The notes under the pieces were generated by a model. It saw only the letters and a list, made by a program, of their open reading frames with translations, was not told the DNA's origin and did not search any database. This document shows, piece after piece, positions 2,096 to 37,339 of a stretch of DNA of 42,924 nucleotides (its first letter is position 1; every line of letters begins with the position of its first letter). The translations under genes were made by a program, and so were the position numbers. Source of the stretch: Psammoneis japonica (lineage: Eukaryota); contig QPGO01000219.1 of the NCBI GenBank assembly GCA_008632985.1, forward strand, positions 62,001 through 104,924, read 5' to 3'.

Positions 2096-3038
2096 TTTTA
2101 CGACAATGGTTGTGGGAAAAGAGACAAGACTCGAGTGGATGGGGCCCAAAAGAAACCGACTTAGGTTGAAGCTTCACGTTGTGTGCACCTTTGCTGCTGG
2201 GCATCGCTGTTCAGTTCGCTGTCACCACCAATCTGCTCGCGTTGCACTGGGCGAGCGGGAAGAGCGAATGCGGCGGTTTGATTTGTCGAAATTTAACCGA
2301 CACCAAAAATTCAAATCGTAAGTAATCAAAAGATTTGCATAAATTTCATTTCACAATACTTAACAGCGAATGCGGAAAGCGGTTATGCGACATTTGGACA
2401 TCGCTGAATTGACGACCAACAACGTACATACCGGTAGAAACTGGACCTACGTCAGAAGCTCAGTTATTCAGAACTTGATGCTGTTTGAGAGAGAGGGAAA
2501 AAAGCGCGGCGCGGCTCTTCTCGACCGTGGACCGAGTGGCGAAGGTCTTCCGTTGATTGCTGCGCGCGAAAGGTTGTGTGTTTGACGTTTGAAGACAAGA
2601 AGTCTTGAACCCAAATACATGTCAGAGACTCCTGCTGCACACCACAAAGCACCCAGCATCTGTCTGCACATGTCATTTCTGCTGTTCGCAGGAGATCATC
2701 AACAAACCTGTTGTGCCCTCCTGAATCACATTTCTGCTGCCACAAAGATCAGATTCACTCAAATCTCCAATGAGCCATGGCCAAGAAGAGGAAGCAATCT
2801 GGAGTGGGCCAGCAATGCAAGTCAGGAGCTGGTGACAGCACACCAAAAGCAAAAAGTGTCATCAAAAAGTTTTTTCTTTTCCAGGGCAACCCGCCACCTC
2901 TCCCAAATCGACGCCAAAAGAGCAACAGCCACTCTCCACCCAACCTCATCTGTGACAATGCTGCCATCACTCCCTCCATTTTACCCATGACCAACCAAAC
3001 TCCTGTCAACCTAAAACCCTCCACAGAATGCCTCTGCT

Positions 3039-4050
3039 TTGACTCTCAAGCCTTTGACAAAACCCCACAAAGATCCTCAAAACAAGCACTGTGTGTCACG
3101 TGCAGCAGTCAAAGCAAGAGATGTTGTCTCATCTTTTGCCACCATTCAGGAGCAAAAAGCCTGTGGTGCCTTGCTTTGCACATTGCAAGTGCCCAATTTA
3201 AATTTTGTTGTTGAGGCTTGTGGTTTGACGCTGCCAAAAACGAAGGGCGCTGCTTTGCAGATGACCAAGCAGCTTGGCAAAATGTGGGGACAAGGACGTG
3301 CCAAGGACAAAAGCAGCAGTGGTCAGTGCTGCGCTGACAACAAAAAATTTCTTGTCCATTTGGCAGCAATTGGAACCTCCTTTTCTCCCAAAAAATCTGC
3401 TGATGAACCCAAATTGCCTGCGAAGGACTGCTTTGCCAGAGCACTTGGTCTGAATCCAAAAGCTGTCTGTTGACAGATGAAACAGGGCAAGATCACCAGA
3501 GTGACCTTGATTGAGAACAAAGAAAATGCTGTGTGGTCTTTGTTGCAACCCCATCAGCATCCTCACAAAAATGTTTCCCCTGAGGCCCACAACGCCTTTG
3601 CACACCAGTTGGGAAATCATCCTGACACAGCGCAGCTGCCCAACTCAAGAGACACGACTCTCACTCAAGGTGAAGATGGAAGAAAAAATGAGTGAACCAA
3701 TGGTCATGCAACGTGTCCACATGTCAGCTCCACAATGACATGTTGAAGCTTGTGCCCATGATGCCAATGGCAAGACCCTGGCCAGCAACAGCCACCATGA
3801 TTCACTTTTTGATTCCCAAGCAACATTGAAAAATGACGAGCAGTCAAAGGTTTCAAGGAAGGCTTTTAAAAGAGATGCAGGTGGCACAGCAAAAATGGTT
3901 GAAAGTTGCAATGATGACCCTGCAACCTCTGAGAACTGTGGCAGTGAAACTGGCAAGAATTTGGAGAGTCAAACTTGCCATTGTCAAGAGGAAGCATTTG
4001 GCGCCAACTCCAATCACCTTTGTCCTGAAGCTCAACATGCAATTGTGACC
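3039..4050 (+). pseudogene. Degraded coding relic, probably from a mobile element
   Basis: Protein-like segments continue across frameshifts and TGA stops (..CFARALGLNPKAV.., ..NHPDTAQLPNSRDTTL.., ..QLHNDMLKL.., ..HFLIPKQH*KMT..). Family not identified with confidence. Confidence 0.35.
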
Positions 4051-4279
4051 ATCATTTGTGAGAGACAAGCTGAAAGGTGAGAGAGGTTGGTGATGATGAA
4101 ATCTTGATCACAAAGAGTCGCCAAATCTTTGACATCAGGAGCAATGGTGTCTTTTTTCTTCAATGCATGTGGGCTCCTCAAATTCCCCATCTGCTGTGTG
4201 TTCCAACACTGCCTTTGGAGCTTCAAGCTGGTGCACATGTGTTTCACCTCATGTTCCTCATTTCTAAGGCACCAATTTA

Positions 4280-5080
4280 AAACCACTTGGTGTCACTTGC
4301 TGGCAGCACAAAATGTTGGTTGGAGTCAAAGATCCACCCACAGCATGAGGCAATGCATTGGTTGTTCACTGGATGGCACAATGTCATGCACAGCCATCAT
4401 TGCAGGTCATCACATCAAATTTGTTGCCCACTTTCAAGGAAATGGCCCAATCCAAACTGCAGCGAAACTTCATTTTGGAGTTCCTTGGTGGGAACTTTCC
4501 TTTCAAATGGCTGCTCAGCATGCTCGTTGCAAATGATGCACAATTGTTGTCAGCTTCAATCTGTTTGGTGGATGTTTTGACATGAGATGCAATGTGATCT
4601 CTCATTTCCAAGTCATCAACATGATGAAGAACACTGGCCAGGGACAAAAAAATGCAAGTGTCTTTGTTTCCTTGCAAGAATTTCACAGGCAGGCTGCTTG
4701 TCAGCAAGCCTGGCCCAATCTCCATTGACGACAACATGTTTCCTTCCAGCAATGAGCAAAAACCATCCTCTGGCTTCCAATCTTTCAATTCCTTCCAAAC
4801 ATCTGGAAACCATGTCTTGAAATTGCACTCAGCCCAATCTTGGGTCAAACAGCATTGGAAGACCATCAATCTCCTCCTGACTCATTCTCTTGACTTTCAC
4901 AATCTGTGTTGAATTGCAAATCAAGTGTGCCTTCCACTGAATCTCTTCCATGCCTTTTTCATCTACAACCTGGACTTTGTTGGGCTTGTGCTTGGCACGT
5001 GCAATGACTTCAACACACCTGTTCATGGGACAGCCCCTAAATTCATTGGCAGTGTCACTGAACCGTTCTTCAAACAACAT
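4280..5080 (-). pseudogene. Degraded papain-fold (C39-like) cysteine peptidase-domain gene
   Basis: Ordered motifs PVKFLQGNKDTCIFLSLASVLH (Q..C helix), then ..PMHC.. (His), then WIFDSN at 4319-4336 after a frameshift, then VLNWC. This is the Q-C-H-D arrangement of papain-like folds. Confidence 0.5.
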
Positions 5081-5552
5081 GCAGCCACTCGTTCATAACC
5101 AAAAGGAAAGAAGGAAGAAAGGCTTTGAATGAAACAGTGTGTGCCTGAATGCGCTTCTCGTCATCGCATCAAGGCACGAAACAGTCAACGGTCTCTTGCT
5201 TGAAGAAGAAGGATTGAGTCGTCATGCGTCGCACCGTTACTTGAGTTCTCTTTGCTATAGCAAGCTAGAGTCTACGTTGCATACACAGCTGATTGACTGA
5301 TGGGGAACGAGAAAGACAACAGAAAGAGACGCATTGAACATGTCTGCGAAACAGCAGGTTGGAAGGTCTCTATCTGAGGCGTCAACCTCTCTAGCTACGA
5401 CATGCTTACTCCTTTCATCACAACGGCTTGAATCATTAGCTTTAGTTCATCTTGGCTGTTGTCGGAGGCGCTACAAGTCATACGTCGAAGCTGTTACTTG
5501 GAGAGCTGTTCATACACAAACATGGGCTTACGAGCACTTTCATAAGATGTTG

Positions 5553-6491
5553 CTACCATTCATTGCGCCTCTTTTCATGGCACACATGACGAATCGTAAT
5601 GGTGCGACCACAAGACTCCCTCAATCGATGGACAACATCATCCACGTGCGATGGCCGTGTCCAGTTGATCCTACACCAAGATTCTTCAACATGATCCGCT
5701 ATAGAAAGATGGGGGTCTTCCTCCTCCATACAAAGACTGCAGGATACCTCCTTTCGCAGCCACGTAAAAGATGCAAAGGTATGTTCGTCCCAGATCGCAG
5801 ATAAACGGGTTCGAAGTTTGGGTAGCTCTTCGATTACGAACCATTCCGTGTCGCTTCCATACGGCTCCTTCAGCTCGGGGCAGTCACGCGATGAACCGTC
5901 CTTTTTGAGTTGTCTGGCGCACAAGCACTGGAGTGTTGATGGTTTTGGTAGTTGTTGCTTGCGAGCCCAGAGTTGAAGCAAAGCAGCATCGGCGTGATTA
6001 CGATCCACGGAACTGGCCAGATCAAAATACGAAACCAAATATTGGTTGCAGGCATCCCGGTTACCAAGACCAAACTCAACCATGGAAGCAAGAAATAATG
6101 CTTCAGGCAAGTAGTATGCAGGCCAGATGCCTAGGACAGTACAATCCAAGAGCAAAGACTTGATAACTTCTTGGGCATCTGTCCACTTTTTGGCATCAAT
6201 CTGCAAGAATGCTGCCCACCACCGGATTGATGGAGCATCGGCTTCATCATTGTGATCTCTGGTAGTATCCAAGGCAGCCTGGATTGCGCTAGCGCGTTGG
6301 ACGTCTTCATCCGGTGACCGTGGGTCAAAGGTGAGCCTGGCCAATCGGACAATTCTTGGTGGGGGGACGGTGCAATCATTCAGCTCGATCCGACCGTGCC
6401 AGAGTGTCACAAACGGACAAGCACGAAGACCATCGCGAATGGCCGCCCATCCCGCTACGCGATCATTCCCGAACATGAGGGGTCTCATCAT
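5553..6491 (-). CDS. Hypothetical helical (TPR-like) protein with Cys/His-rich C-terminus; may be the 3' part of a gene that includes 6488-6868
   Basis: Intact 312-aa ORF with normal TA/CG/Tyr content between two mutated tracts. A decayed paralog lies at 7440-7700. Confidence 0.6.
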   Translation of the reverse strand: MMRPLMFGNDRVAGWAAIRDGLRACPFVTLWHGRIELNDCTVPPPRIVRLARLTFDPRSPDEDVQRASAIQAALDTTRDHNDEADAPSIRWWAAFLQIDAKKWTDAQEVIKSLLLDCTVLGIWPAYYLPEALFLASMVEFGLGNRDACNQYLVSYFDLASSVDRNHADAALLQLWARKQQLPKPSTLQCLCARQLKKDGSSRDCPELKEPYGSDTEWFVIEELPKLRTRLSAIWDEHTFASFTWLRKEVSCSLCMEEEDPHLSIADHVEESWCRINWTRPSHVDDVVHRLRESCGRTITIRHVCHEKRRNEW

Positions 6492-6868
6492 ATTCTTCTT
6501 GATCGAGTCATATGAATTGCTGATTCGTTGTAAAGCGCGCCTCGGCTTCTTTCGCGTAATACTTCACGTTCGCCACCAAACAATCCATTGATCAGTTTCT
6601 CATCTGCTGGCTTACCGGTTCGTGCTCTCTCCCGCATATCGCGAGTAACCAGCTTTGAGTATTCCCAGTTTGAAGCGCTTTCTGACAATTCGACAGATGC
6701 GTTGCGGGCTGTATCACGGAGCCCGCTGATCTGCTCGTGGAGACGAGAGGCAGCGGGACATAAGTCGCCCTTGATGGCATCCCTTGTCTCCCTGATCTTC
6801 GACTCGGCCGCCGACAAGCAGCCTCGTTCAAACAATGCAACGGCTTCATCCAAGGTGGTTGTTGACAT
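6488..6868 (-). CDS. Hypothetical helical protein (MSTTTLDEAVALFERG...)
   Basis: Intact ORF from the ATG of MSTTT. Its TGA overlaps the next ATG (ATGA). Confidence 0.45.
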   Translation of the reverse strand: MSTTTLDEAVALFERGCLSAAESKIRETRDAIKGDLCPAASRLHEQISGLRDTARNASVELSESASNWEYSKLVTRDMRERARTGKPADEKLINGLFGGEREVLRERSRGALYNESAIHMTRSRRI

Positions 6869-7439
6869 GGTTGCAGGTTTCTGCCTTTGATGGTGCTTTG
6901 AGGTGTATGGTGTCTCCGTGAAACTGACACTGTTTTTTAGCGGTTTGGAGCCAATCAGAATGGAGCACGAAATTTTCAACAGTGCGTAGACAGCAAGTAG
7001 ATAGAACCTTGTGCCACAAAATGCTCGAACAATGCAAATCTATTACGGGTGGTAGAGCGAACCCAGTTATTGCTACATTGTACGTTGTGATTTTGCGGGG
7101 CAACTCTACTACACTAGGCTTGTTTTTCTTGGCAAATGTATGCAGCTTGCATTCTCTCGTCAGCACTGCTCTCTCCTAAAAATCAGAGGCGCTCGGCTTC
7201 TTTTTCCATCGCCAACAGCCCAACCAATTCGTCAGTCCCTGTTGCTGACGACACGCCACGGCAAAAACCACCACACCATGAAGATGCAATCGACAGGCAG
7301 CTAACGTCGACGACGAGTGACTGTGATGCATCAGCAGAATCTTTGGGACCCACCAGGCACTGTCGTCATGCTTTTCCTTTGGCACTGAGCTCTCCACCAG
7401 GAGCACCAGTGTGTCGTCAGCAGCAAGGTCCTCTTAAAA

Positions 7440-7700
7440 GGCAGTGCAAACCAAGGGTGCAGACTTGACAATTTCTTTGGCATTGGTCCATTTTTGGCAT
7501 CAATCTACAAGAATGCCACCAACTGGCTTTGGACTGTTGGAGCATTGGATTCATCACAGTCATCTCTGGTGGCAGGCATCTTCCTCCTGTGCCGATCTTG
7601 TGACAGCCACTTTGTTGCAAATTTAACAAGTGCCAAAATGTCTCAAGCCCTGTCACAATGAAATCAAGCTCAAGGTCTCCCTGCCAGAAGAAATGACAGT
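7440..7700 (-). pseudogene. Decayed paralog fragment of the 5553-6491 gene
   Basis: cagtgcaaaccaag..gacttgacaatttc..tttttggcatcaatctacaagaatgc..ggagcattggattcatca..tctctggtgg aligns to 6137-6266. Protein FFWQGDLELDF aligns with TLWHGRIELND. Confidence 0.75.
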
Positions 7701-8989
7701 GCTGACCTTGCTGCTCATTTTCCATTGTCAGAAGCAAGTCTCCAGAAAGATGCTGCTTCAGCCCCTGTGCTTTTGTGTCTTGCCATGCTGACCCTTCTTT
7801 GTTTTTCTGTTGCTCTCCCTGAGCCCAAGTGCTTCACACCCTGGGCTTTCTGAAACATTGTTGTTGTGCCCAATCATGAGATTGCAGCTCAGCTCCCAAA
7901 GATGTGCCAACATTTTGAGCTGCCAGCTCCCAAGTGCACTGCCCTTGTGTCCACGGAGAAATTCCATTGTCTCCTCACCCCAACAATGGAAGCAGCCAAA
8001 CAAAGTTGGCACATCATCTTTTCTGTCAAATGCCAAGGGGCACAGCAAATCTGAAGGTTTTCATTGCACCCTTGGTGCCAACCAAGTGTTTGAGACATGC
8101 TTTTTTGCTTGGGTGCACATGGCAGAATTTTGAGTTTTTCATCAGATCTGTCTTTCTGGAATTGTCCCACTGCTGCTTGCCACAGATGTTTTAAAGTGAG
8201 GCTCTCCACTCTCAGAAAACTTTGCTGCTCCGGCCACTCCCAGAAAACTTTGCCACTCCAAATTCACTGACCCTCATTCTTGTTGCAGCACAAGCAGCAA
8301 CCTTTGAGTTCATTCAAGGGTGCCAGGCCCACCATCATTTTTGAAAATGTCTGCAGCAGGTGTCTTGGGCAAACAAGAATCAATGTCCATGCAGCCCAGA
8401 TTGTCTGCAACATGCCCAACAAGAGAAAGCACTGCCAACATGCAAGGAAGGTTGTCACGTGTGAAAACAAGAGTCGGGTGGCTCTGTTTCTTGTTTGCCA
8501 CCTGCTTGGCAATGTGCCACTCCAATCTCATTTCAAGCACTGGGAGGGGCAATGCATCAGCAAAAGTTTTTGTGATGTCTGTCAAGTCCCTGCAGTGATG
8601 GAAACACCTGTCAATCTTGAAAGCACATTCTGACACCAGGCATGGTCAGAAAGACACCCCAACAGCTGCTTTTGAGCTCATGATGCCATGTGAGTTGAAG
8701 TCATTGGTGTGGTGGCTCTGAATGTCATGTCAGCAGTCACATCAAAGTCAAACAACCAGGGCTCTTTTTGGCAATTTCAAAGTTGCACATTTTTGTTTCA
8801 GCAAGTTTGCTGCAAGCCAAACTGAGCACAGGTTGTCACAATCACAAACTCGTTGTCAATCTGTTCAGCAGCTGTCTTGCAACAAGGCACTTCATTGGGG
8901 TTCTCTGTTTCCTTTGCTTCAAATTTCAAGCCTTCAAAATTGTGCTTCTTGTGTGTGACATCTTTCAACCCCGGCAACTTAAAGTTCAT

Positions 8990-11376
8990 TGCAATTTTAA
9001 CAGCAAAAGAGAAGCAAGCTTTCCATCAGCTGTCTTTTGCTCAATTGCTGCTTCCACAATGTCACACAAACAAAGAATTTTGTTGGTGAAATCACACTTT
9101 GGCTTTGCTGCCTCATGCAGTCCTCTTGTGTTTTGATCTTTTTTCTTGGCATGCTGCTCCACTTGCCAACCATGGTTGTCAGTTTTGGCAAGTTGCACCT
9201 GCTCAAAGTTGGGTCCTGCTGATGGCCAGCACACAGATGCCACCTTTCCCTTGGAATCCAAGTCTGGCAGAAACCCCAGCTCACTGAGATCTTGGTGTGA
9301 CATTTGACCCCATTCTCCTTGAGTCTTGAGCAGCTTGCTTCTCTTCTGGCAAAGCTGAGGGGTGCAAGGGTGATGGCAGGTTTTCAACAACTCTTCAAAA
9401 ACTGGCATGGACTTTGTTTCTTTGTGTCTGACATTTCAGCACTGATGAAGCCATTGACAATGCTCTTGCCAGAAATGATGCAGCCTTCTCCAAGGCTGCT
9501 GGAAGACAGCAGAGGAACCCAACAAGAGCTTTTTTCTTTTGGCCCACCAGTTTGACATTGTGTTTGCTTTTGGCTCATTCATCATGGTGATGATGTTTGC
9601 GCTCAAGCCAACAATCAGGTCGTCTCTTGCTGTGGATTCATTTAGGATCTGCTTGATCAGTTCAAACAGTTCTGAGAGATCAGCTGGCTGCTGCACTCCT
9701 GTTGTTGTGCTGCAGAGCACTTGTTTTGGCACAGCAAATTGCTGACCTTGTCTGGCTTCTTGCATGTCTTGCACAAAAACATCTGAAGCTAATTTGCGCA
9801 ACCATCAGACCATGACACACCCTTCGACCAATCTGTGGCAGGATGACTGGGACTCTCATCTTGATCCCACCCAAGAGCCCACCAACAAACTGGCCAAAAA
9901 GCTCAGGCAGCAACACATGATCTTGCAGCACTGGAATTTTTTGTTTGCAACAGTGGCCCCACTCTCATCATTCTTGTTGGCATGCAGCAAGACAAGCAAA
10001 GCCATTGAGATCAGCAGGGGGGCAACATTTGTGGGTGTTCATTGTCAGAGACCAGGGATTTCAACAGCCAAAATGCCATCAACAGGGAGCTCCCCATCTG
10101 TTGAGCCAGTTGCCACAACATGCAGAGGCACCATTGGACCACCAGCTGCAAAAGTGAATGCAAGCCAAGGTCAAAGACTGCCACTGCTGAGTGGGTTGTT
10201 GTCCACCTTGTGCATCAATTAACCACCAGTCTCCTCAGCTAGATCAGTGAGCTTCCAGCTCCATTTGTGACTCGTCTTGGCACCTTCAAAAGCAGAAACA
10301 GTTGCATTGTGTCAGTTAAAAGGATGAGTTTTGGGTTCACCAGAAACAACTTTTTTGTGCTGCACTCAGCTTTTGCAAACTTGACAGTTTTCTTGGCTTT
10401 GATGCTGAGCCTGCTCCACTCTTGTCACAATGCTCCCACCCTCTCCATGACTTTGGTCCCTCAATGAGGTGTGCACTCAGTGCAGTGTTTTGACATGTCA
10501 GCGCCATTGGAATCAAATTTGTGCTGATGATTTGAGTCTTGGTCTGGGTTGCAGACTTCTTTTTAGTCAACAAGCAGCTTGCTCCCTCCACAGTCAACAA
10601 GCAGCTGGCTCCCTGCATGGCACCGGGGTCAATTGTCTTTTGGCAGTGTTGTTTGATGCTTCAACACCAGACTGCTCTTCCATTGTCTCTTTCATTTCTG
10701 TCAGGCCAAACTGTTCCCCAATCACAGCCTTCACCTTGGCCATCACCACAGTCTGTGGTGGTGTGTGGCTCATCATTCAGGGTTGGCCTGTGAAGCCAGG
10801 TCCATTTTGCATCAATTTGCACAAGCCAGAGATGTGAGCAATGAGGCATCATGTTGATTTCTTCAGGGCATGAAGCAAAACAGCAGCCCACCTTTCCTTG
10901 CTCTTGGCTGGGTGTCAGGAAAGATGCTCACAGAGCTCTGGGCTGTTTTTGACCAACCAACAGCTTTGCTGAAAGGGTCGCACATTGGCAGAGCCTTGGC
11001 ATTTTTTGGTGGCATGACAACTTTCACCCACTTTGAATTTCTTACATTGACATTTGCTTCAACCTCCTTTGATGGTTGCTTCAATGATGCTGCCATCTTT
11101 GCTGCCAGCGCTTTTTTGGAAGCCCAAGCAACAATTTTCAGCTGCAGCAAAGGGAGCAGAGGTGGACTCTCTCATCATTTGTCCACCTCAAGTGAGTCAC
11201 ATGACACCACAACATGCTTCACTTGTGAAAGTTGTGAAGATTGTCTTCATCCCTTGCAGCAAATCCACCCAGCTGCCTCCACAACAGCTCCAAGCTTGCC
11301 AACAACCCACCGAATCTTGGCTGCTTCAGCACCCTTCTTCAACAATTTCACCGCTTTCAAAATGTTTTTGACTTGA
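8990..11376 (-). mobile_element. Degraded pogo/Tc5-like (DDE_1) transposase
   Basis: Motifs in order on the minus strand: VNPKLILLTD (~10340-10312); LAFTFAAGGPMVPLHVVATG..ELP..EIPGL (~10165-10050); VSWSDG (D at 9804-9806); STTTGVQQPADLSELF (D at 9679-9681, compare TTxxLQPLDV of DDE_1). Multiple stops and frameshifts. Confidence 0.6.
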
Positions 11377-12399
11377 CCAAGCATCTCAAGTGTTCATCAT
11401 GCCCCTTGAACATGCCGGGTGTCCACAACTTACTTCGCCTTTTCTGGTTTGCTGCTGCTGCCAGTGTTGCCACTGCCTTGTTTGTTTGAAGCTGTTGGCA
11501 TGATGAGACTCAACTTTTTTGAGGATCATCACAAAATGTCACTCACATGCCACCCACACAAAGGCTCAAATTTAAGTTTTGCAAGACACATTTCTTCCAA
11601 GTGCTGACAGACCCTAAAAAAAATGCTGAAACCACCAAATTTGTGCACAAAAGACAGTGACCACCTTGAAAACTGCAGCATCTGCCCATTTGCCAACAAA
11701 AAAGCCCCGCAGGAGAGGAAGCTTTGCTGGATCAGCATGATGCCAAATGGGCATGATGCAGTGGTGATGTCAGTGCCTTGGAAGGCAACAGGGGCACAAT
11801 TGATGCTGTCAGGCACATCATTGGTGGGCCAGCTTGTCACACACAAGAAATGCCACATGCACGCAGATTTTTTGTTTCAAATTCTGCAATGTCACCAGTT
11901 TTTTAATTTGGCATCTTGTGGTCTCTCTCTGCACCTTCTCTTCAAAAGAGACCCAGACACAAGCTGACAACCAAAGCAACAAACCAGAACAAGAATGGAC
12001 ATGCTGCAGTGGGGGACCAGTGCACAGCTGGGGACTGCAACCTCAGCTGCCGGTGTTGGCCTGCCAGCATTTGTTGCAATGTGTCACACAGTGCAGGGCT
12101 TGTGCAAGGAACAGTTGGCTGATGCTGGGTGGAAGACAAAAAAGCCCCTGTGCCTCCACAACACACAGAGACAAACAGACAAACACAGTCAATCAAAAGC
12201 AAGAGTTCACAAAAAGAAGCCAGAGTTTGGCTCAGCAAAGCAACCAAACAAATGCAAAGCAAGTCCTGCTGAGCAACCAGGGTGCTTTTTCCTGCAATCC
12301 CACGAACTTGGCTCAGCCCAAATGAACTTTACAACCTTCAACATTGCTTGGGCATCATTGTGCATGTTCACTTGGTCATCTCCCTTTCTCATTGGTGGT

Positions 12400-14300
12400 G
12401 CCTGCTCATCTTGCTCAACTGAGCTGACAGTGCTCTTTGGGCTCTTGGTCTTGGTGTTGAGGTGCAAAAGCCACAAAGATCATTGCTGTCACTTGCTCCA
12501 GTGATGGATTTCAACATCATCTCCTTCTGGTGTTTGTGGTGTGCACCTTCCACCTTTTTCTTCTTCTTCTCTTCCTTTTTGTCTTTGAGCTGCAAGTTCT
12601 CCTCTGCAGCTGTGTCTCTGCCTCACCCAAATGATCTGCACTCATCTCCTCAGCTTCCATCTTGTGATGACAACAATGCATCCTTCTTCAAAGCAAGTGC
12701 CACTGTGGTTGGGGAGCTGCCTTGCACAAATCAGCAATGTGAGCCAGCCGCAAATTGAAATTTTCTTTCTTTTTTGCATCATCTGAGAATTGCTGTTGTG
12801 ACAATTCTCTGTCATTTGTGATGGCTTTTGCCAACTCAGAGCACCACTTTGGCAAAAAAGACTTGCACAAACAGCTGCACCTCAAGTCCAGAAAAATTCT
12901 TGCTGTCCTTGTCAGCCAAGAGAACATGCAAGAACACATGGTTGCACCACCTGCCAACAACAACATCATGCAATGCCTCCAACAGTGACACCATCCCTTG
13001 TCTTTGTGAGGGTGTGGACCAAATGTGAAAACTTTTCTGCAACCCTGAATGCCAGAACAACATGCCATGTGAGTGTCCTTTTCCACATTGTCCAAGAGTC
13101 ATCAGGATTTGTCCTGCTGCAACACTCATCATGAAAAACATGACCATCATTGTTGTGAATGTCAGACTTCTTCATCTTGTTCCACTTGACAACTGGAGCA
13201 TGACGCAGCTTGTTGTCCACCTGCTTCATCTGAGCACCTTCTGATGCAATGGAATGATGGTTGTTTGTTTCACACCAATCCCCTTGACCGTAAAAAGGGG
13301 CAGCACTTTGTGACATGTGCAAACTTGACGTGCAATCCCTTCAACACCAAATGTCCAATTTGTTCTTCTTTTCTGACAGCATCTTCACTCTCTGACAACT
13401 GTCAAACACAATCTTGCCAAAAGGTGGCTGCACAATCTTTTTCATGTGTCACGGCTCAACTTTTCAGGTTTGCACTCTTCCAAATCACCAACATTGACCT
13501 GGCTTTCTTTGTGAGTTTCAAGCCTGACAGTGCCAAAATGACTCTCTCACCAATGTCGCTTCTTTTGTCAAGTGGTTTGTCCCAAACTCAGGATTGGCAC
13601 TTGCTTGTTGCAGCTGCATGGTGGGTGATGTGCTTTTGGCTGGAGTGAGGCCTTGCCAGAACAACTCCAGAGCTCGCTGGAGCAACCAGCTTCTTTGCAC
13701 ACAGCACAAAAGTGTTGTCTCCATCATTTGCCATGAGAGCTTCTCCCACTCCCAGCGCTCCTTGCAGACCCCCACTTTCAAGTCTGAGCAGTGAGACATG
13801 GCACCCACAACATTCTCAAAACCCAACACTTCCTTGTGACAAGACAACAATGTCTTCTGACAATGAAGACATGCACCCCACTTGTTGTTCACACCAAAAG
13901 AAATGGCTTGAACAAGCCCATCCAAAAAAAGACAACCACACAATGCAATTGGATGGTGCAATTGTCTGTTCATCATCACCCACCCCAATCATCAAAACCA
14001 AAAAGTTTCTTCACATGCTGAACATGGTCAACAAGCACACCAACTCCACTCTCTTGACATGGTGCAACAAAATGGCAACAGCAAGACATTTCTTTGTGGC
14101 GCCCCTTTCCAACATTCCTGCCCAGCACCAACATCATCACCATGTTGTTGTTCTTGTCACCCAGACATTTCACAGTTTGTGGTCCATTCTCATGGCAAAA
14201 TTGTTCTTCAACAAACCAATCAGCAACAATGTTGTGGAATGGGTTTTCTTGTTGTTTGATGGATTTGAACCCCCATCAACACCATTCTTGTGATGAACAA
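12400..14300 (-). pseudogene. Further degraded coding relic(s), unidentified
   Basis: Minus-strand protein-like pieces (QLKDKKEEKKKKK; KWCSELAKAITNDRELSQQQFSDDAKKKENFNLR; KWNKMKKSDIHNNDGHVF) broken by frameshifts. Confidence 0.3.
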
Positions 14301-17300
14301 TGTGAGGTGGGACAGAAGGCTGGTCTTTTGGGTTCCAGAATCTTCTGTGGTCAACTCACTCAGCCACACAAGACCTTGTGGGCACCACATCTGGGGATCA
14401 GTTGCAGTTTGAAGACATTGCCAGTGCCAAGTTTTAGAGACACCCTGCTTTGAACAATGTCTTTCCATTGTGTTGACAAACCTCTTGACTTGAGGGGACA
14501 ACTTTGGCAAAAAAAATTGTTTGCTTGAAGGGTGCCACCACCAACAGAAGAATCTGCCAGCTCTTGTCTTTTTTTGGTGGCTGCTGCAGCTGGCATGACC
14601 ACTGTGATTGCACTGATCACACACTTGTGTGTCTGCATGACAGATGCACTCCAGAGAGGGGCCCAACATCAGCCAACACAAAATTGAAATGGATGGACAG
14701 AGGCAGCCTCCAAGGCAGTTCCAGATGACAAAAGCACCAAGACACTGAGAATCACAGCAAACAAACTGAAACAGGAGTGCAGCTGGTGCACTGGTCATGC
14801 ACTTGTGTTTGTGCAACAAATGCACTGCAGAGAGGAGGTCAACATCAGTCACCACAAAATTGAAACAGGTGAGCAGAGAGGCAGCCTCCAAGGCAGCTCC
14901 AGATGGCAAACACAAAACACCAAGCATTGCAGCAATCAATTGAGTTGTTGTTCAAGACAGTGGCAGTTTTTGTTCAGAAACTGTTGGGGTGAAGAAGAGT
15001 TTGGCAGAAATTTGGAATGAATGACGAAAGCAACTGAAAAATGATGTGTGCAAAGCAACCAAAAAATGACATGTGCAGTGCCTCTTGCATGAATGGCACC
15101 AGCACTGAAGTGCAAACAAAAAAATGAAAGAGATGGGGTTGTCCACAAGAATGAAAGTGACTGTGCACAGACACAATTGTCTTGTGATGACAATGAGACA
15201 ACTTTCAAATAAAAACAACAGACAGCTCTGTGCAATGCAAAGGGAAAGAGGGGGTTGCAGAGTGGCAACAGCAGCATGCTGCATTGTGGCTCATGCATGT
15301 GGAAGTCAGCATTGATCAATGCACTGTGAGAACAACATTGCATGCCATCTGATGCCGTTCTTTTTGTGACAAAAGTGCACTCCTTTTTGATTGAAAACAT
15401 GATGCACTCTCATCATCACAATTTTGTGTCATCATCAAACACTTTGATGTTTGCCGAATGCCCAAAAATGTGATCTCTGCTGGTGGAGACAAAATTGTCT
15501 GGTGCTGAAACCCGCATTGAAAATCTCACATGACATGTTGCAGATCACCTGGAGCTGGAACAGGCCACCAGGTGACATGCAAACTGACACTTTTGTCAAC
15601 TTGTTGCACATGTCAAACACACATTTGAGCACACACATCTTCAATGCCAGCATGAAAAAATAAAATGCCTCATCTGCAGGTGCCATGCTCCAAGGGGCTT
15701 AATTTCTCAATGAGAAACAAACTCCAAAAGTGACAAACAGCATGCTCAATGAGAAAATGAAATGACAGCACAGGACAGCAGCTGCTTCCTCCACCTTGTC
15801 ATGACAGGAGCAGTGCCATTCAGGCCACCACACTTTGCTTGGTCTGTGGATTGTGGATGCCATTTCTCTTTTGTCCACAGCAAGCAATGGTCACAGACCT
15901 GCCTGCAGTGATCTCAGTGACTTTTCATTGAAAAGTTTTTGCACCTTCTTCTCAGGCCATTTTGCCCCCACCCTGCTTTGCAGCCAATCAACTTGAAAAT
16001 GTGATGCCATTAAATTTGATGCCCTGATGCTGCACAAAGAGTGGCGCACACTTTTTAGATGATGTCACACAGCCCACAGCCTGTGTGTCAACAAAAAGCT
16101 TGCAACAAGTTGAACAAGGTCACATGCATCATGCATGTGTGATGCTGACTGGTGGGTTGAAAGTGCCAGCCTTTGTCATTGAAAAGCAGCTGCTTTTGTC
16201 AGTGAAAAAAATGATGGCTGCTTTGGGCAACTTCCTCCAATTGTTTCAATCTTTGTGCACAAGAGTTTGTTGAATGACGTGGCATGACATGGCATCTAAG
16301 AAAGAGAGAGAGAGAGTTCCAAAACCTTGTGCAAATTTGTGTGCTGCTGTGTGAGTTGCACAGAGGTGGAACCCAGTTTTCATGGCTTTGATCTTGCTCT
16401 GCAGCTTTGGCAGAGCTGGAGGGCAACAAAAAAAGCTTCTGTCAGTTGCTTCAACTGGGTGTCATTCAGCAACTGAAGCCCTGCTGCTGTTTGCTGCGTG
16501 GCATTGGTGTCCAAATGAGCCCACATGGTGCATTGTTTCTGTGTTGCACAGATCTGTTTTGGGGGCCTTGCGCACAAGGAGTCTCATGGTGCACCAGAGC
16601 AGGCATCACACTCATCCAGATTTGCTTGGGATTTTTCCATGCACAAAGGGGGGGGTTGGATGCAACCCTCTGTGCACAGCTGGCAAGTCAATGCTGTCAC
16701 TGAAAGGGAATCCCATTGGGCTTTCTGTCCCACTTGATGCACTCCTTGCCTTGGCAATCTGCAATGGCTGTGGGGGTTGCCACAAGGTGTCAATGCAAAG
16801 TGCAAAGTGTTGCATGACAACAGGTGCCTGCTCACACCCAATGCAACAAATTGTGTGAACCAAGTGACTCGCTCCAAAGAGTGAGGTGAAAAAGAAAAGG
16901 CAAGGGCTGGTGACTCTGAGACTCTTTTTGCAAAGTCACTCAGCAAACCACATCAGCACATGAGCTAAAACATCTTTCCTTCAACATGTCTGGGTGCCCT
17001 GCAGTGCTTTAAAGTTGGTCTGGTGGCAGCACTGAGGATTGGCGTTGCTTCAGCGCTGACTTCTTTCAAGTCAGAGCTGGGCAGATTGGTGCACTGTCTC
17101 CCACCAGAGAAGCCAACCAATGCCAGTGTAGTGGCGGACACATGCACTCACAAATTTCTGTGCTCCGCATCTCTGTGCTTTCATGTGCACTCCCCACTGC
17201 ACTGTGCCCTCTTTGTCTGCAGGGCACCCCACTTCAGCAGCCAGAAGGGATGGGATCTCATCCCAAGCAAATTTTGGTCATCCCTCTCTTCCTTTGCATC

Positions 17301-17564
17301 AACAATCAACTGACACAAATCTAAAACATCGCGACGGATGCAGGGGTTGTCACTCAACTGACTCTTTCTGCTCTCGAGCCATCGAACCATTTCAATCCTT
17401 GCCTTCTGGAATTCCTCATTCTGAATTCCTTCCATTGTCATGGCCACATCCATTTGCAGCTGCTCTCCGTTTTCATTACGTGTCGTTCCCGTGAGGAGCA
17501 TCTCGCCCATGTCTCCCAGCTCTCTAAATTTACACCAGTAATTCCGCGGCCACCGCTGGGCAAA

Positions 17565-17758
17565 GTGGCAGTCGGTCTAGTACAACACGGCCTCCTCGGC
17601 CAACGATGACGGAATCGAAACATTGGAGTCACATGGGTGTTGACACAGCTGGTGACAAAAGGAACAGCTCTCGAGTAGGGAGGGGATTCAAAAAGTTTGG
17701 AGCCGGTTCAGCAAAGTTTTGTCCCGCAACAATCTTCGGACAAGCCGCCTTATCTGAA
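17565..17758 (-). pseudogene. Local duplicate of an internal EPL1 segment (source 18206-18432)
   Basis: 194 bp alignable to 18206-18432 with 12 substitutions and deletions of 8 and 25 bp. Confidence 0.95.
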
Positions 17759-17882
17759 CGCCCCTCGGCAATTTGCAAGATTGCCGACCATTTCTGCTCC
17801 CACTACTCTGCATACTTATCTACAGAATGAGCAGATACAGCATCTGCAGTCAATTCTAGAGTCTATCATTTAGTCTTGCTGG

Positions 17883-19682
17883 CTAGAGCGGACCGATAGC
17901 GAACCTCTCTTCGCCCCAAAGCTGATCATCTGTATCCAACCAATCATCAACCTTCACAAGGACGGCTTCCCCATCGTTATCATCTGTTTCCGGAGTGGCT
18001 CCCGCAGTACCCGGTGCAGTTGCAGGAGTTTCGAAGTCATCCTTGAGAGCAGCAACACATATTTCTTCGATTCGCCGACTCAGATTTACATGGTCTAAAG
18101 GTTGAGGTAAAAGGTCAATCAGCCGTTCCTTGGGCTTGTCCGATCGCTTCACGCAGTCACCAGCTGTGTAAACCGTTGGTGGCGGCATTGTCGGGTGACC
18201 AGGATGTGGTAGTCGGTCCAGTACAACACGACCTCCTCGGCCAATTCGTGGACGATGACGGAATCGAAACGTTGGAGTCGCATGGGTATTGACATAGCTG
18301 GTGACAAAAGGAACAGCTCGGTCCCAGGATGTGACATATGACTCTCGAGTAGGAAGGGGATTCAAAAAGTTTGGAGCCGGTTCACCAAAGTTCTGTCCCG
18401 CAACAATCTTCGGACGAGCTGCCTTATCTGAAGACATCCCTTGACGAGCCGCTGCACTCTCATCGATTATATCCCCCGACGTTGGCATTGGAGAGCGTCT
18501 TGATGAATCGAGCTTTCGCTTCCTTCCTCTCTTCGCGGCAGCCTCAGATGTATCAAAACACTTTGGTACGTCAAGTAGACTATCCAACGCTTGACGACTC
18601 AGATTAGAGCTCAACCGACACCACCCACTCGTGTCAACAGCATCGTACATTCGCTGATCAAACAAGTCTGCTTGCATTTGAATCATTGATCGATTCAACT
18701 CTTCTCGTCTCTTGACCAAGTCCAGCATGACGCGAACCATGTCAAAGTCACTTCGTAGCTGCTTCATTTTTCGAAACGCTTCCATGTCATTTTGACGCTT
18801 CTTTCGTAGCTTGTACTTTTCCTTCTCGCGTGGCCTAAAGACAAGATGAGGATTGGTATCATCGGTAGCCGTAACAGGCCAAAACCGTCGAAGAAGAGGT
18901 CGCTTCAATTTTGAACGCTTCTGCAACCAATAAGTGTAAACGTCTTGGATGACATGCTTGACTGTAACTATTCCAGCGCGTGCCTTTACAGGAAACAAGT
19001 GCAAAAGCTGTGGGACTTTAGAAAATAAAAGGCGCTCCGCGTGATCCGTAGTAATGATGGTTTCGAATCCTGTTTCCTTTTCGAGAGCGTCAATCATTTG
19101 TTCAAGCATACCAAGAGATATCTGTGGCCGACGACGAAGCGAAGTATGATCCAAACTATCATCACTTTGATGCGAATCAACAGTTGGTGTGGATGCGCCG
19201 AATCTGGTGTTGCTCTGGAGCCATGCCTCGTCTTCTGCGTCAGCATTGTATTCCAGTTCTGTCGATAGTTGCTCCTCCGTTGGTTTGCGATAACGAACAT
19301 AGGATCTTGGTATCTGGTAGTTTGAAGGAACATCGGTGCCATACGTTTCTACATCGATGATTCGCGGTGTCGGGATTTCCTTCTTGGGCTTGGGTTGCAT
19401 GGACGGCGTCTAAAATAGAGTGTTGCAAGATGAAAACTTCAAAATGTGAGAGAAATCACGTCAAGTCTGTATGTCAACCGACGCATTGCATCATGCAACC
19501 TGGTTACCGGTATGAATACGTACCGACGTTGATGCTGCCTTTCCCAAATCAGCCACTGTCTTTATGTTTCCATCGCTATCTTCATATTTCAGTGTATCTG
19601 ATGCGCGCCTCACTATCGCTATCTTTTTGTAGACATTGAGTGCCGACACTCCCTTGATTGCCGGTGCAGTCGGCGGCGCCAT
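17883..19682 (-). CDS. EPL1: Enhancer of Polycomb-like protein (NuA4/TIP60 subunit); exons 19682-19524 and 19409-17883
   Basis: EPcA motifs IPTPRI..Y..P.SYVRY, EYNADAEDEAWL, VYTYWLQKRSKLKRPLLRRF, DTNPHLVFRPREK, and FRHRPRIGRGGRVVLDR. In-frame GTACGT..TTTTAG intron at 19523-19410. Confidence 0.9.
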
Positions 19683-20260
19683 GATCTATCGTCGATCGAT
19701 GTTGGATTTTACCGACGAGGAAGGACGTTGTGTGCTCGAGCAGAGTTGACTTCCGGGTGCCTCTCCAGTTTCTGTATGATAATTCAATATCACATTTCAT
19801 CATGGATATATTCAAAAAGTGTCACTATCAAAACGATGAACTTTAGAATTTTTCCCTTTACGATCCAACGGATGGTCAACCTAAACCGGATCTATCCATA
19901 ACATACAATTACGGAATTAATCATAAAGAAGACATTTTTCATAGCTGACGGTTGGCGGCATTTTCGTATATTTTATATATAGAATATAAAAAACTTACAT
20001 AAGTCTTCTCTTCGAAATTTGGGTCACGTACGTTTTCACGTCATCGTGGTACACACGCAGATTTTCGATCAACCAACAGAGCACTGCGCTGGACGGGCGG
20101 AGGAGTTGCTTTTGCGTTGTTGCGTTGTTGAGGTAACCGCGAAGGCAGTCCCAGTCAACTGTAGAAGAACGTTCCGCTGCAATTCATATCTCCCGTGTCT
20201 TTGCAAAGAGTACTTCCCAAGGCTTCACGAGGAACCCACGGGATTGTTGTTGAGAGAGAA

Positions 20261-21948: not shown

Positions 21949-22123
21949 TTATGTATTGCGCATCAACAGGCAGCAAAGCTTCATCCCTGATAGATATTGT
22001 TTACGGTAGATTAGCGTTGTCAATTATTTTAAAGAAACGACAACAAAGTACCCATACCACACCTACGCTTCTCCTTGGGGTTGGGAATGCATGAGTTAGA
22101 ACAATTGTTCAAAAGGTTATTAT

Positions 22124-26766: not shown

Positions 26767-26953
26767 AAGGGCTTAGCTCTTGTTAGGGAGTTGTACGCAG
26801 TATTCGCTCTTAAACCTTAATCGATGTATTAAGAAACAACGAACGAGTGTCGAATGGTTTAGAAACATCACATAATTAGGAAACAAATTTACGTCATGTA
26901 AAACGAAGAGCATTTTAATTATGATGCTCTAGGGGAACTCTCTCTAGAGAGTG

Positions 26954-33227: not shown

Positions 33228-33780
33228 TCGTAGATTTGTAAGAGTGGGACTTGACCGGTTTTTCCCCTCGAATTTGAATTCCGATTTGAATACCGGCACA
33301 GTAGATGGGTCACAACTCGTGATCGGTTAGTGGCTTCTCTAATTATTAAGAGACATTTCTGTGTAGATTGGATACAACAGATGACGTTCAGTAGAGCAAT
33401 GAACTTCCTCGTGTCCATATTACTCATACATTCTAGTGTTGCAAGAGGCAGACGTTGTTGTGACCTTTGAAATGTCTTTTCAAGATTGTGGCTGTGCTTG
33501 TGTTGTCCAATGTACGTGAAAGGCAGGCACTGTACAGTAATCTGAACAGAGGCAAAGACATGAGCGAACAGTCATTGGTAGCTAGAGACCTCTCTATCAT
33601 TCAGCATCCAGTGACCACATGTCTTTTGTTCGTACATGCCGCATCATCGCATCTGTTGAGGCTACTCTCTATTGTACTAGGCCCTTCCATTGAACAGCCA
33701 CAGCCAACGACGGGCTCCTTGACGATGCAGTTGACGGAAGATTTATGCCGGTCTGGTCTGTCTCTATCCATCCAGCCTCC

Positions 33781-36510
33781 TGAAGCGGTGCCGGCATGGA
33801 AAGACATTTTTTCAGTTTGTCGAACGTGCTTGTAGACTCGGAGTGCGCACAGAGCAACAGAACACGAACTTCAGCTGTTGCAACATGTTTTGTGAGAGAA
33901 CGTTCATCATCGTGAAGCTTGCGGCCCCCTCACCGCTGACCTTCACCAGCGTCTCTTGTGGTTTTGGCGCGTGCAAACCATCGTCGCGCTCTTGGGCTCT
34001 CCAGAGGTGTCTGCAGTGGGACAGACACTTCTTTCCAGCAGCATGTCTATGACCAATGAGTTGCAAAGACAAAGGAGGAAATCTGGGCAAGTGCGCTGGT
34101 CTTGAGAGTTCCTCCGCAAAACCTTTGAGCTCTGGCAAGAAGACCGTTTCCCGCATGAGGCCAAAGCATCGCCGATCCCCCAGCGCACACATTGCGGTCC
34201 AGGAGATGCTCCTGTCCCTTGCAGAGGTGTGTCTGTGTTCGAAGTCCCATCTCGCCAAAGAGTTGCAAAGACAAAGGAGGAGATCCAGGCAAATGTGCCA
34301 GTCTTGAGAGTTCCTCCGCCAAACCTTTGAGCTCTTGCGAGAAGACCCTTTCCCAAGGCCAAAGTGTCGCCGAGCCCCCAGTGCACACATTGCGGTCCAG
34401 GAGATGCTTCTTTCCCTTGCAGCAGCATGTCTGTGTTCAAAGTCCCATCTCGCCAATGAGCTGCAAAGACAAAGGAGGAGATCCGGGCAAACGCGCCAGT
34501 CTTGAGAGTTCCTCTGCCAAACCTTTAAGAGCTCTTGCGAGAAGAGTGTTTCCTGAGGCCAAAGCATCGCCGAGCCCCCAGCGCACACATTGCGGTCCAG
34601 CAGATGCTTCTTTCCCTTGCAGCAGCGTGCCTGCATTCTAAGTCCCATCTCGCCAACAAGTTGCAAAGACAAAGGAGGAGATCCGAGCAAATGCGCCAGT
34701 CTTGAGAGTTCCTCCGCTAAACCTTTAAACTCTTGCGAGAAGAGTGCTTCCAAAGCATCACCGAGCCCAAAGCGCATGCATTGCGGTCCAGGCGATGATT
34801 GTAAAGACAACTCATGGCAGCTGAGCCAAGAAATGGACAAAATGATGCGAGGCACATGTCAGCAAAATCAGTCCTCAAAGCACACGTTGGGGATTCATCG
34901 CCAGCATGGACGTGCGAAACATGTCGCAAACAAAGACACACCGGCATTGTTCATTTGGAGATTCATCACATGGCCCACCTGTGCAGCTTTCATGTGTGTG
35001 TTTCCGGAAGCTTGGAAAGAAGCATTGCAGAGAATGGCATGAGATGTTCTTCATTAAATTCGCAACAAGCGATCGGAACGTTGTGACTTCAAACGATCTT
35101 GCAAGGGGCCCGACGTCATTGCCAATGTCGTTGGAAGGAGTTGGTTGAAGCGGCGCCGGCATGGAAAGACATTTTTTCAGTTTGTCGAACGTGCTTGTAG
35201 ACTCGGAGTGCGCACAGAGCAACAGAACGCGAACTTCAGCTGTTGCAACATGTTTCGTGAGAGAACGTTCATCATCGTGAAGCTTGCGGCCCCCTCACGG
35301 CTGACTTTCACCAGCGTCTCTTGTGGTTTTGGCGCGTGCAAACCATCGTCGCGCTCTTGGGCTCTCCAGAGGTGTCTGCAGTGGGACAGACACTTCTTTC
35401 CAGCAGCATGTCTGTGACCAACGAGCTGCAAAGACAAAAGAGGAAATCCGGGCAAATGCGCTGGTCTTGAGAGTTCCTCCGCAAAACCTTTGAGCTCTGG
35501 CAAGAAGACCATTTCCCGCATGAGGCCAAAGCATCGCTGATCCCCCAGCGCACACATTGCGGTCCAGGAGATGCTCCTGTCCCTTGCAGTGGTGTGTCTG
35601 TGTTCGAAGTCCCATCTCGCCAAAGAGTTGCAAAGACAAAGGAGGAGATCCAGGCAAATGCGCCAGTCTTGAGAGTTCCTCCGCCAAACCTTTGAGCTCT
35701 TGCGAGAAGACCCTTTCCCAAGGCCAAAGTGTCGCCGAGCCCCCAGCACACACATTGCGGTCCAGGAGATGCTTCTTTCCCTTGCAGCAGCATGTCTGTG
35801 TTCAAAGTCCCATCTCGCCAATGAGCTGCAAAGACAAAGGAGGAGATCCGGGCAAACGCGCCAGTCTTGAGAGTTCCTCCGCCAAACCTTTAAAAGCTCT
35901 TACAAGAAGAGTGTTTCCTAAGGCCAAAGCATCGCCGAGCCCCCAGCGCACACATTGCGGTCCAGCAGATGCTTCTTTCCCTTGCAGCAGCGTGCCTGCA
36001 TTCTAAGTCCCATCTCGCCAACGAGTTGCAAAGACAAAGGAGGAGATCCGGGCAAATGCGCCAGTCTTGAGAGTTCCTCCGCTAAACCTTTAAACTCTTG
36101 CGAGAAGAGTGCTTCCAAAGCATCACCGAGCCCAAAGCGCATGCATTGCAGTCCAGGCGATGATTGCAAAGACAACTCATGGCAGCTGAACCAAGAAATG
36201 GACAAAATGAGACGAGGCACATGTCAGCAAAATCAGTCCTCAAAGCACACGTTGGGGATTCATCGCCAGCATGGACGTGCGAAACATGTTGCACACAAAG
36301 ACACACCAGCATTGTTCATTTGGAGATTCATCACATGGCCCACCTGTGCAGCTTTCATGTGTGTGTTTCCGGAAGCTTGGAAAGAAGCATTGCAGAGAAT
36401 GGCATGAGATGTTCTTCATTAAATTCGCAACAAGCGATCGGAACGTTGTGACTTCAAACGATCTTGCAAGGGGCCCGACGTCATTGCCAATGTCGTTGGA
36501 AGGAGTTGGT
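33781..36510. repeat. Tandem duplication of a 1365-bp unit (33781-35145, 35146-36510), each containing about four ~200-bp subrepeats
   Basis: tgaagcgg(t/c)gccggcatggaaagac at 33781 and 35146. Subrepeat anchor (t/c)tgcaaagacaaaggagg at 34061, 34263, 34461 and 34661, and again at +1365. Confidence 0.97.
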
Positions 36511-37215
36511 TGAACGGGCTGGCATCACTTCTCGTTTTACCAACATGGACAGCTTCGAGATTCCCACCCTGGCGAACCCAAGAAGCCAGCAATTCACGTG
36601 GTCGGTGCAACAACGGGCCATGAACAAGCACTTGTGTCTTTTCGTTATTTGTCATGTTCAAATTTTCCATCGAGGCTTCACCTTGAAGCCATCGCTCAAT
36701 GTCTGCGTGACAGCAAAAACGCGTCAATCCTCCGGCACCAAATCTGGCCTGTTCGCGACACATCTGAGGAAGCAGCTTGACATTGTTTCTCCATGATTCC
36801 TCTCTTCGACTGTGGAGTCAAAGCTGTGTTGGCTTTCTTGATGATGAATTTTTTTCAATGATGAGAGCTGCCAGCAATTGCCTTTGCCTGTTTCGTTCCA
36901 AGATTCAATTCTTCGTGTGAGTTGCTTCTCGGACGACGGACGCTTCAGAGCAGGCAAGCAGCGTGCCAGCACTCCAGAGGCCGTGAGTGTGCAGCAGTAT
37001 TTGACAATGACAAAAGCTTGTAGCTTGACCAGCATCAGCAACAGCCAGCACCACGGGGGGTGCCTCATTGCAAATGTGAGAGACGAAAGATGACACAACT
37101 GCGTTCCAAGCCTGCCCTTTTTCGTTCCAAGCCGTTTCACTTTCAAAAATGAAAAATTGAGCAAGAGCAACTCCAAGAGGGCGATGCTCTTGTTGTGGCA
37201 CGCTTTGTCAGTTCT
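33781..37215. other. TpA-depleted but largely CpG-retaining tract III
   Basis: TA is rare and mostly TTA/TAA, while CG is still common (e.g. tcgtcgcgct, ggcgcgtg). Confidence 0.85.
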
Positions 37216-37339
37216 TCTACTACATGTTTTCGCGATTACTCTCTAGCTAGAAATGACAGCATCTGCATGGGCGATGGATCTTTTGGATCTTGAATTTTTT
37301 TTTGAAGAATCCAAAAAATTCAGTCTCAGTCCATTTTTT

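Follow-up and report, generated by a model that had tools for sequence, protein, structure and literature searches.

Near-complete loss of TpA from three sharply bounded tracts of a diatom-like nuclear genome suggests hypermutation in place

Composition and boundaries of the TpA-poor tracts

The window analysed here is a stretch of 42,924 nucleotides (nt) of contig QPGO01000219.1 (assembly GCA_008632985.1, Psammoneis japonica; positions 62,001 to 104,924), in which three tracts have lost almost all their TpA dinucleotides. The edges of these tracts (hereafter referred to as T1 to T3) were placed at the maximum-likelihood change-points for TA (2466/5238, 7178/17477 and 33766/37218), each of which lies within 45 bp of the coordinates proposed in a first-pass annotation of the same DNA. 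The tracts and the ordinary sequence between the first two (hereafter referred to as the island) are listed below, together with counts and observed/expected ratios (o/e).

2466..5238: T1; 10 TA (o/e 0.05) and 45 CG (o/e 0.30 overall) at 2500-5235; CG-poor core at 2587-5064
5239..7177: island, separating T1 from T2; ordinary composition, with 72 TA (o/e 0.58) and 106 CG (o/e 0.90) at 5240-7180
7178..17477: T2, the 10.3-kb tract originally flagged; 30 TA (o/e 0.04), 52 CG (o/e 0.10), 1191 CA (o/e 1.85) and 1088 TG (o/e 1.86) at 7300-17200; CG-poor core at 7315-17330
33766..37218: T3; 20 TA (o/e 0.10) and 168 CG (o/e 0.73, most CG being kept) at 33781-37215

The background (17600-33700) contained 674 TA (o/e 0.61) and 960 CG (o/e 1.04). 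At the background rate, 414 TA would be expected in T2 (binomial P 6e-138), 114.5 in T1 (P 3e-37) and 143.7 in T3 (P 3e-39). In 500-nt windows spanning 7251-17500, TA o/e ranged from 0.00 to 0.14 and the mean TG/CA o/e from 1.62 to 2.13, with CG o/e values of 0.00-0.20 in the core (7501-17250), rising to 0.34-0.41 in the window at either edge; TA o/e in the flanking windows was 0.33-0.96. The near-absence of TA from all three tracts between normal flanks, the normal TA content of the island and the abundance of TG and CA in the tracts, all reported by the first-pass annotation, were therefore confirmed, whereas the CG-poor cores that it described were found in T1 and T2, but not in T3.

The dinucleotides lost and gained were almost in balance. 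The share of TA and CG fell from 10.2% of dinucleotides in the background to 0.8% in T2, and that of CA and TG rose from 14.0 to 23.0%, a gain of 9.0 percentage points against a loss of 9.3, with G+C content nearly constant (0.478 in the background, 0.469 in T2). We simulated such a conversion by replacing TA and CG with TG or CA in the ordinary DNA of the window, and compared the strand-symmetrised trinucleotides with those of T2. The correlation increased from r=0.63 to 0.95 and, for the 24 trinucleotide classes containing neither TA nor CG, from 0.52 to 0.86. Both T1 and T2 consist of complex sequence, with 0.86-0.94 distinct 8-mers per position versus 0.93-0.95 in the background, and no large tandem arrays were found in either; low complexity is ruled out as the cause of the pattern in these two tracts by this 8-mer diversity.

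Strand symmetry, sequence context and footprint

The two possible outcomes of TA conversion were almost equally represented in T2 (TG:CA about 48:52), with no strongly skewed 1-kb bin, and runs tests of their order yielded z values of -0.22 for T2, -0.32 for T1 and 0.03 for T3. An even and random mixture of this kind is compatible with numerous independent events affecting both strands of duplex DNA. Strand-coordinated editing was rejected, the z values being close to zero in all three tracts. The dinucleotide TC was not depleted (o/e 0.96).

The TpA process is context-dependent. The 60 TA remaining in 16,072 nt of tract were compared, by flanking base, with the 1038 present in 25,927 nt of background, giving the following survival values:

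TTAA: 0.61
CTAA/TTAG: 0.35
GTAA/TTAC: 0.10
CTAC/GTAG: 0.07
ATAA/TTAT: 0.04
CTAG: 0.03
ATAC/GTAT: 0.02
ATAG/CTAT: 0.01
ATAT: 0
GTAC: 0

TTAA was therefore largely spared, and CTAA/TTAG partly so.

At each of the four T1 and T2 edges, the TA-poor zone reaches further out than the CG-poor core, by 121-174 bp. The resulting shoulders (2466-2586, 5064-5237, 7178-7314 and 17330-17476; 579 nt in total), which are TA-poor with a normal CG content, contained 2 TA versus 24.2 expected (P 6e-9), and 42 CG, or 72.5 per kb, versus 59.6 per kb in the background. As the shoulders and T3 have lost TA yet kept CG, the loss of TA is independent of CpG decay, being either the more rapid of the two or targeted more broadly. 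Between T1 and T2, the host gene is intact and unaffected, the composition of the island being normal. The footprint of the change, its direction (described below), strand symmetry and context dependence, and the fact that it does not depend on CpG loss, are all shown by the present sequence.

A single deaminase acting on both the A of TpA and the C of CpG, with no separate decay of 5-methylcytosine (5mC), would account for the coincidence of the two losses in T1 and T2, and the ADAT2 homologues of amphioxus and Trypanosoma are given as acting on both A and C in a recent preprint (Mettrop et al. 2026, bioRxiv 10.64898/2026.01.13.699255). However, the two footprints differ, as T3 and the four shoulders lost one dinucleotide and kept the other, and we consider a single enzyme with two substrates unlikely.

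Direction and timing of the change

Two fragments of host genes, one inside T2 and the other beside it, could be compared with their functional parents.

7442..7570, plus strand: hypermutated fragment homologous to the island gene segment 6137-6263; the TA (2/2) and CG (2/2) of the gene copy all read TG or CA
17565..17758, plus strand: partial duplicate of the neighbouring gene (18206-18432); three TA and three CG of the gene copy are changed to TG or CA

The second fragment carries two internal deletions and lies about 90 bp outside the TA edge of T2; its parent is a 505-amino-acid (aa) gene (17883-19400, minus strand), and its changes may represent a spill-over of the process beyond the tract. 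A tblastn comparison of the island open reading frames (ORFs) with the rest of the window gave no match beyond the 130-nt stretch. When the functional gene copies were taken as ancestral, TA had changed to TG or CA at 5 of 8 sites, versus 2 of 50 for the reverse change (Fisher p=2e-4), and CG had done so at 5 of 15 sites, versus 1 of 50 (Fisher p=0.002); bases outside these four dinucleotide steps differed at 28 of 274 positions.

The internal repeats of T3 provide a second source of information.

33781..35162 and 35146..36525: two 1365-nt copies, 97.5% identical, each with about four 200-nt tandem units; the remainder of T3 is about 690 nt of unique TA-poor sequence

As T3 is partly a 200-nt array inside a duplication, it contains less independent sequence than its length implies. 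Among the eight 200-nt units, six variable pyrimidine-purine (YR) columns are split purely between CA and TG, with no CG or TA in any copy, and nine CG-bearing columns retain CG in 2-7 of the 8 copies. On the simplest reading of these alignments, the columns with only CA and TG would have been TA when the units diverged; all copies would have been converted later, and hence within the genome. A comparison of the two 1365-nt copies, classified by eye, places 20 of the 34 substituted columns on YR steps: 14 are CG versus TG/CA differences, four are TA versus TG/CA differences and one is a TG versus CA double. One of the TA differences (35818) is a newly made TA, and the differences do not, therefore, all run in one direction.

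Paralogues elsewhere in the genome were generally divergent, with 304 of 396 aligned contigs less than 95% alike, and their variants comprised 670 transitions and 265 transversions. Individual letters were compared at 40 of the 935 variant positions, 31 of them inside the tracts. Among these 31, there were three adjacent TG versus CA doubles, and the window keeps CG at four sites. A single site among the listed positions, 4814, has kept TA in the paralogues (depth 1295 of 1673), the window reading TG. The presence of TG in one copy and CA at the same site in another implies an ancestral TA or CG that changed after the copies had separated. The mass balance, the simulation, the polarised pairs and these splits together support the proposal, made from the sequence at the outset, of a second process, beyond CpG decay, that converts T:A to C:G at TpA.

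An element or virus naturally avoiding TA and CG, for example through selection against nucleases or silencing, could have been inserted with this composition and undergone no mutation in the host. The edges are indeed sharp (over tens of bp), and a count by eye of the listed letters present only in paralogues gave 2 TA and 4 CG in about 489 nt; both dinucleotides are scarce there too, the composition being family-wide. Nevertheless, native composition does not explain why fragments of host genes inside and beside T2 differ in the same way from the functional genes that gave rise to them, or why copies are split between TG and CA at the same sites. In T2, moreover, TAT is absent and TAC is present at 0.4 per 1000 trinucleotides, so almost no tyrosine could be encoded, which is implausible for a coding element, and the trinucleotide spectrum is that of converted host background. 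We consider such an origin quite unlikely.

If editing preceded integration, TA would have been lost from an intermediate (RNA or cDNA), for example through A-to-I editing, with U at position -1, of a retroelement transcript, and the mutated copy would have been inserted afterwards. Sharp, element-like edges would be expected, and a preference for U before the edited A is a feature of fungal ADAT2/3 RNA editing. The strand pattern is the main difficulty, since editing of a single transcript strand should leave TG on the sense strand alone, and not an almost even and random mixture. In addition, conversion varies among the tandem units of a single array, fragments of host genes are affected, and the Pfam searches of the T1 and T2 frames and 61 ORFs described below detected neither a reverse transcriptase nor an integrase. 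ADAR is likewise credited with a preference for U before the edited A in the Discussion of the preprint cited above (bioRxiv 10.64898/2026.01.13.699255). On balance, editing before integration appears very unlikely.

Copy number and coding content of the tracts

The first-pass annotation described the process as repeat-targeted and the tracts as containing transposase relics, and neither description was upheld. Two segments are highly repeated:

4335..4901: repeated segment of T1, recurring elsewhere in the genome; summed word depth 1066 versus about 60-70 for single-copy sequence
14541..15107: most-repeated segment of T2; summed depth 950 for the bin, reaching up to about 6800 at 14643-14662

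The second of these contains a 155-nt direct duplication (14609-14764 and 14787-14939, 79% identity). By contrast, six depth bins covering 8304-11705 had depths of 69-137, versus about 60-75 in the single-copy flanks, which puts about half of T2 at single copy, for a likeness of at least 80%; at this resolution, the process does not appear to be tied to copy number. Contig joints connect the region around 4100-5080 with that around 12200-16970 (sides of 21-75 letters, 80% likeness), a weak lead that hints at a single repeat family comprising T1 and distal T2, interrupted here. A degenerate YR pattern of the most-repeated segment matched the window twice and gave no match in metagenome contigs.

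No coding content was recognised in the tracts. Among the 61 of the 106 stop-to-stop ORFs of at least 80 aa submitted to Pfam, none reached the gathering score (the best, L27_N, had E=0.003, below threshold), and none of the 12 frames read through with X at stops (six each for T1 and T2) matched a family at E≤0.01. An Rfam search of the whole window gave no matches. The longest ORF (14223-14951, minus strand) had no HMMER match among 1.84 billion representatives; it is probably not a gene, because chance is estimated to give about that length when TGA is the sole remaining stop codon.

In all frames of T1 and T2, TAA and TAG have almost disappeared and TGA is the only frequent stop. These tracts spawn many ORFs of 150-240 aa that are rich in Cys, His, Trp and Gln and lack Tyr, and gene callers could take such chance ORFs for genes.

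Support from sequencing reads

The tract was present in a single public run (hereafter referred to as X1); two others (X2 and X3) covered the flanks only or gave no coverage. No RNA run was listed as containing it, a result with no bearing on expression. Contigs built from the X1 reads differed from the window by 0-2 letters over 0.4-3.5 kb, at a word depth of 60-71, and exact X1 contigs bridged all four edges of T1 and T2 (record 2 for the left edge of T1, record 3, spanning 4824-7860, for both edges of the island, and record 8 for the right edge of T2). Ordinary sequencing chemistries read 5mC as C. Systematic misreading of modified bases in heterochromatin (T or A at TpA, 5mC at CpG), or an assembly error, is highly improbable as the source of the pattern: both TpA and CpG are plausible modification sites and no run of clearly independent technology was found, but the X1 contigs give the same tract letters at flank depth, and misreading of palindromic sites would mix CA and TG reads and break the contigs, whereas each site has one fixed state.

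At position 9086, the window has G and X1 has T at full depth, which may reflect an assembly error or a strain difference; among the 40 of 935 variant positions listed, this is the only X1 difference within 5066-13676, an interval that includes single-copy T2. At 1500-2080, over the 3' part of a 550-aa ORF, an X1 contig has a depth of 160, about 2.5 times that of single-copy sequence, with 8 differences in 581 nt, and X2 contains an exact copy; this extra-depth contig may correspond to another allele of the gene, or to a paralogue of recent origin.

Host genes and lineage

One intact gene lies between T1 and T2:

5553..6491, minus strand: intact island ORF of 312 aa, conserved in diatoms

This ORF had only three homologues (53-58% identity over 97-100% of the query), including a hypothetical protein of Thalassiosira exigua, and matched no Pfam family; it looks like a diatom-restricted gene with no assigned function. 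The best named relatives of the flanking MTO1/GidA exon were those of a Bacillariaceae species (63%), Ectocarpus (56%) and Aphanomyces (52%), with other matches at 72-75%. The genes of the window are long and have few introns. Diatom affinity, presumed at the outset, is supported by the homologues of these two genes, from which the host is identified as a diatom or a close relative, and not as Bigelowiella.

Two further features of the host sequence were recorded. A 75-nt tandem duplication in perfect frame (26078-26228, 97% identity) lies within a 548-aa ORF (25120-26766) and repeats a 25-aa acidic motif. Immediately to the right of T3, positions 37218-37500 are very AT-rich (G+C about 0.37), with 31 TA in less than 300 nt; this is the sharpest compositional contrast of the window and lies on the promoter side of a 1080-aa ORF starting at 37693.

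Comparison with known systems

Fungal repeat-induced point mutation (RIP), found in ascomycetes and presumed to be a genome defence, converts CpA to TpA and raises the TpA/ApT ratio. The tracts resemble its products in that selected segments with sharp edges have been degraded by dinucleotide-directed transitions. The direction is nevertheless the opposite: TpA/ApT is 0.058-0.127 here, versus 0.64 in the background, and (CpA+TpG)/(ApC+GpT) is 1.76-2.0, versus 1.18. Unlike RIP, the process has also acted on sequence of which roughly half (in T2) is single copy. RIP hits both copies of a repeat, whereas the fragment at 7442-7570 was mutated and the gene copy at 6137-6263 was not, although 130 nt may be too short for a fair test. 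The indices are the inverse of those expected under fungal-type RIP.

Deamination of 5mC is matched by the loss of CG to TG/CA in the cores of T1 and T2, and by the polarised CG changes. However, the loss of TA is beyond its reach, and the CG-poor footprint does not reach as far as the TA-poor zone, and is weak in T3. A-to-I RNA editing (by ADAR, fungal ADAT2/ADAT3 or ADAT2/TadA) likewise targets an A after a 5' U or T, but acts at the RNA level and on one strand, whereas the change observed here is in DNA, symmetric and randomly mixed.

The closest parallel is provided by the chlorarachniophyte Bigelowiella natans (Rhizaria), as described in the preprint cited above (Mettrop et al. 2026, bioRxiv 10.64898/2026.01.13.699255). 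Of the 302 nuclear single-nucleotide mutations recorded in mutation-accumulation lines, 231 were located in two integrated viral regions, a nucleocytoplasmic large DNA virus (NCLDV) and a virophage; 230 of the 231 were A to G or T to C, all stated to fall on TpA, and the rate in the viral regions was about 1000 times that of the genome. An ADAT2 homologue was proposed as the editor. The tracts described here share with that system the A:T to G:C change at TpA, giving TpG or CpA according to the strand, although it is read here from a footprint rather than from new mutations. They also share its confinement to discrete regions (TpA depletion and CpA/TpG enrichment were clustered in 1-kb windows in B. 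natans), and the presence of many affected sequences without annotation. When the cluster cut-offs of the preprint were applied to 500-nt windows, all those of T2 (TA 0.00-0.14; CA/TG 1.62-2.13) and the inner windows of T1 (2501-5250; TA 0.00-0.11; CA/TG 1.54-1.90) fell within them; T3 did so for TA (0.00-0.21), whereas its CA/TG values (1.19-1.60) were mostly below 1.52.

Several differences were also identified. The host here is diatom-like (Stramenopila), and depletion is near saturation, with a TA o/e of 0.04 in T2 as opposed to a Rho of 0.45 for the B. natans NCLDV region. The targets in B. natans are viral, whereas the tract DNA described here is known from its composition and repeats, with no domain match. 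A narrower CpG-poor core is present here, and the main text of the preprint mentions neither CpG, nor diatoms, nor TTAA; the sparing of TTAA and the 121-174 bp overhang are, accordingly, features of the present tracts absent from that text. The view, expressed in the first-pass annotation, that such a process had not been described as a system is out of date. No other description of the TpA signature was found in the literature searches made, although a buried mention is possible, and the accessible part of PMC12344493 contains nothing on TpA.

Discussion

The observations are best explained, with a probability that we estimate at about 0.7, by hypermutation in place, at TpA, of non-coding DNA of a diatom-like nuclear genome, together with a separate loss of CpG from the cores. 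According to this explanation, the tracts would be silent, non-coding and partly repeated DNA, in which many independent A:T to G:C transitions would have occurred at TpA on double-stranded chromosomal DNA, with TpG and CpA as about equally probable outcomes, until conversion had run almost to saturation. A second, spatially narrower process, most likely deamination of 5mC, would have stripped CpG from the cores. The TpA process would be confined to sharply bounded domains that leave out the intact host gene between two of the tracts. Its agent may be an ADAT2/TadA-like enzyme that deaminates adenine in DNA, or an activity that modifies thymine to the same effect, with chromatin state directing its recruitment.

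Several points weigh against this explanation. The sole run containing the tract may derive from the source sample of the assembly, and would then provide no independent confirmation, such as that from another technology. The foreign or transposon nature of the tract DNA is an assumption, as neither Pfam nor HMMER identified it. Few sites could be polarised (8 for TA), and the gene copies were assumed to be ancestral. The spectrum of change across the repeat family is partial, as it is based on 40 of the 935 paralogue variants. Finally, at least one TA in T3 was newly made: at 35818, one unit reads TTACAAG, and the other seven read TTGCGAG or TGGCAAG.

By analogy with B. natans, hypermutation of the tracts would be of the same kind as that reported there, and we infer that it works as a defence or silencing system against invading DNA. 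The window would then represent a second, distant lineage and a more extreme case of TpA hypermutation. The features new here are the sparing of TTAA, the footprint wider than the CpG-decayed core, the action on single-copy sequence and the exclusion of an embedded host gene. A broader proposal, which we put forward tentatively and with somewhat less than even confidence, is that silent or invading DNA in diatoms is stripped of TpA, to saturation, by an editor of double-stranded DNA targeted to domains. This editor would spare TTAA and act independently of repeat homology and CpG methylation; its footprint extending beyond the CpG-decayed core by about one nucleosome on each side, it would be recruited by a chromatin mark, and not by 5mC. 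Taken together with the Bigelowiella system, such an editor would point to an old defence, shared across the SAR (Stramenopila, Alveolata, Rhizaria) supergroup and mirroring RIP.

TpA-directed hypermutation has, to our knowledge, been reported once before, in the 2026 chlorarachniophyte preprint, and a saturated footprint in a diatom-like genome would mean that the process is not peculiar to one alga. For annotation, such tracts lose tyrosine codons and the TAA and TAG stops, generating long spurious ORFs and masking the origin of the DNA. The sparing of TTAA, the lack of strand coordination, the wide footprint, the action on single-copy DNA and the exclusion of an intact gene provide handles on the editor and on the signal that recruits it. 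Diatoms dominate ecologically, and knockouts of candidate deaminases or chromatin factors would be feasible in those that are genetically tractable. If the proposal is true, TpA editing would be an old genome-defence system across the SAR supergroup, the mirror image of fungal RIP.

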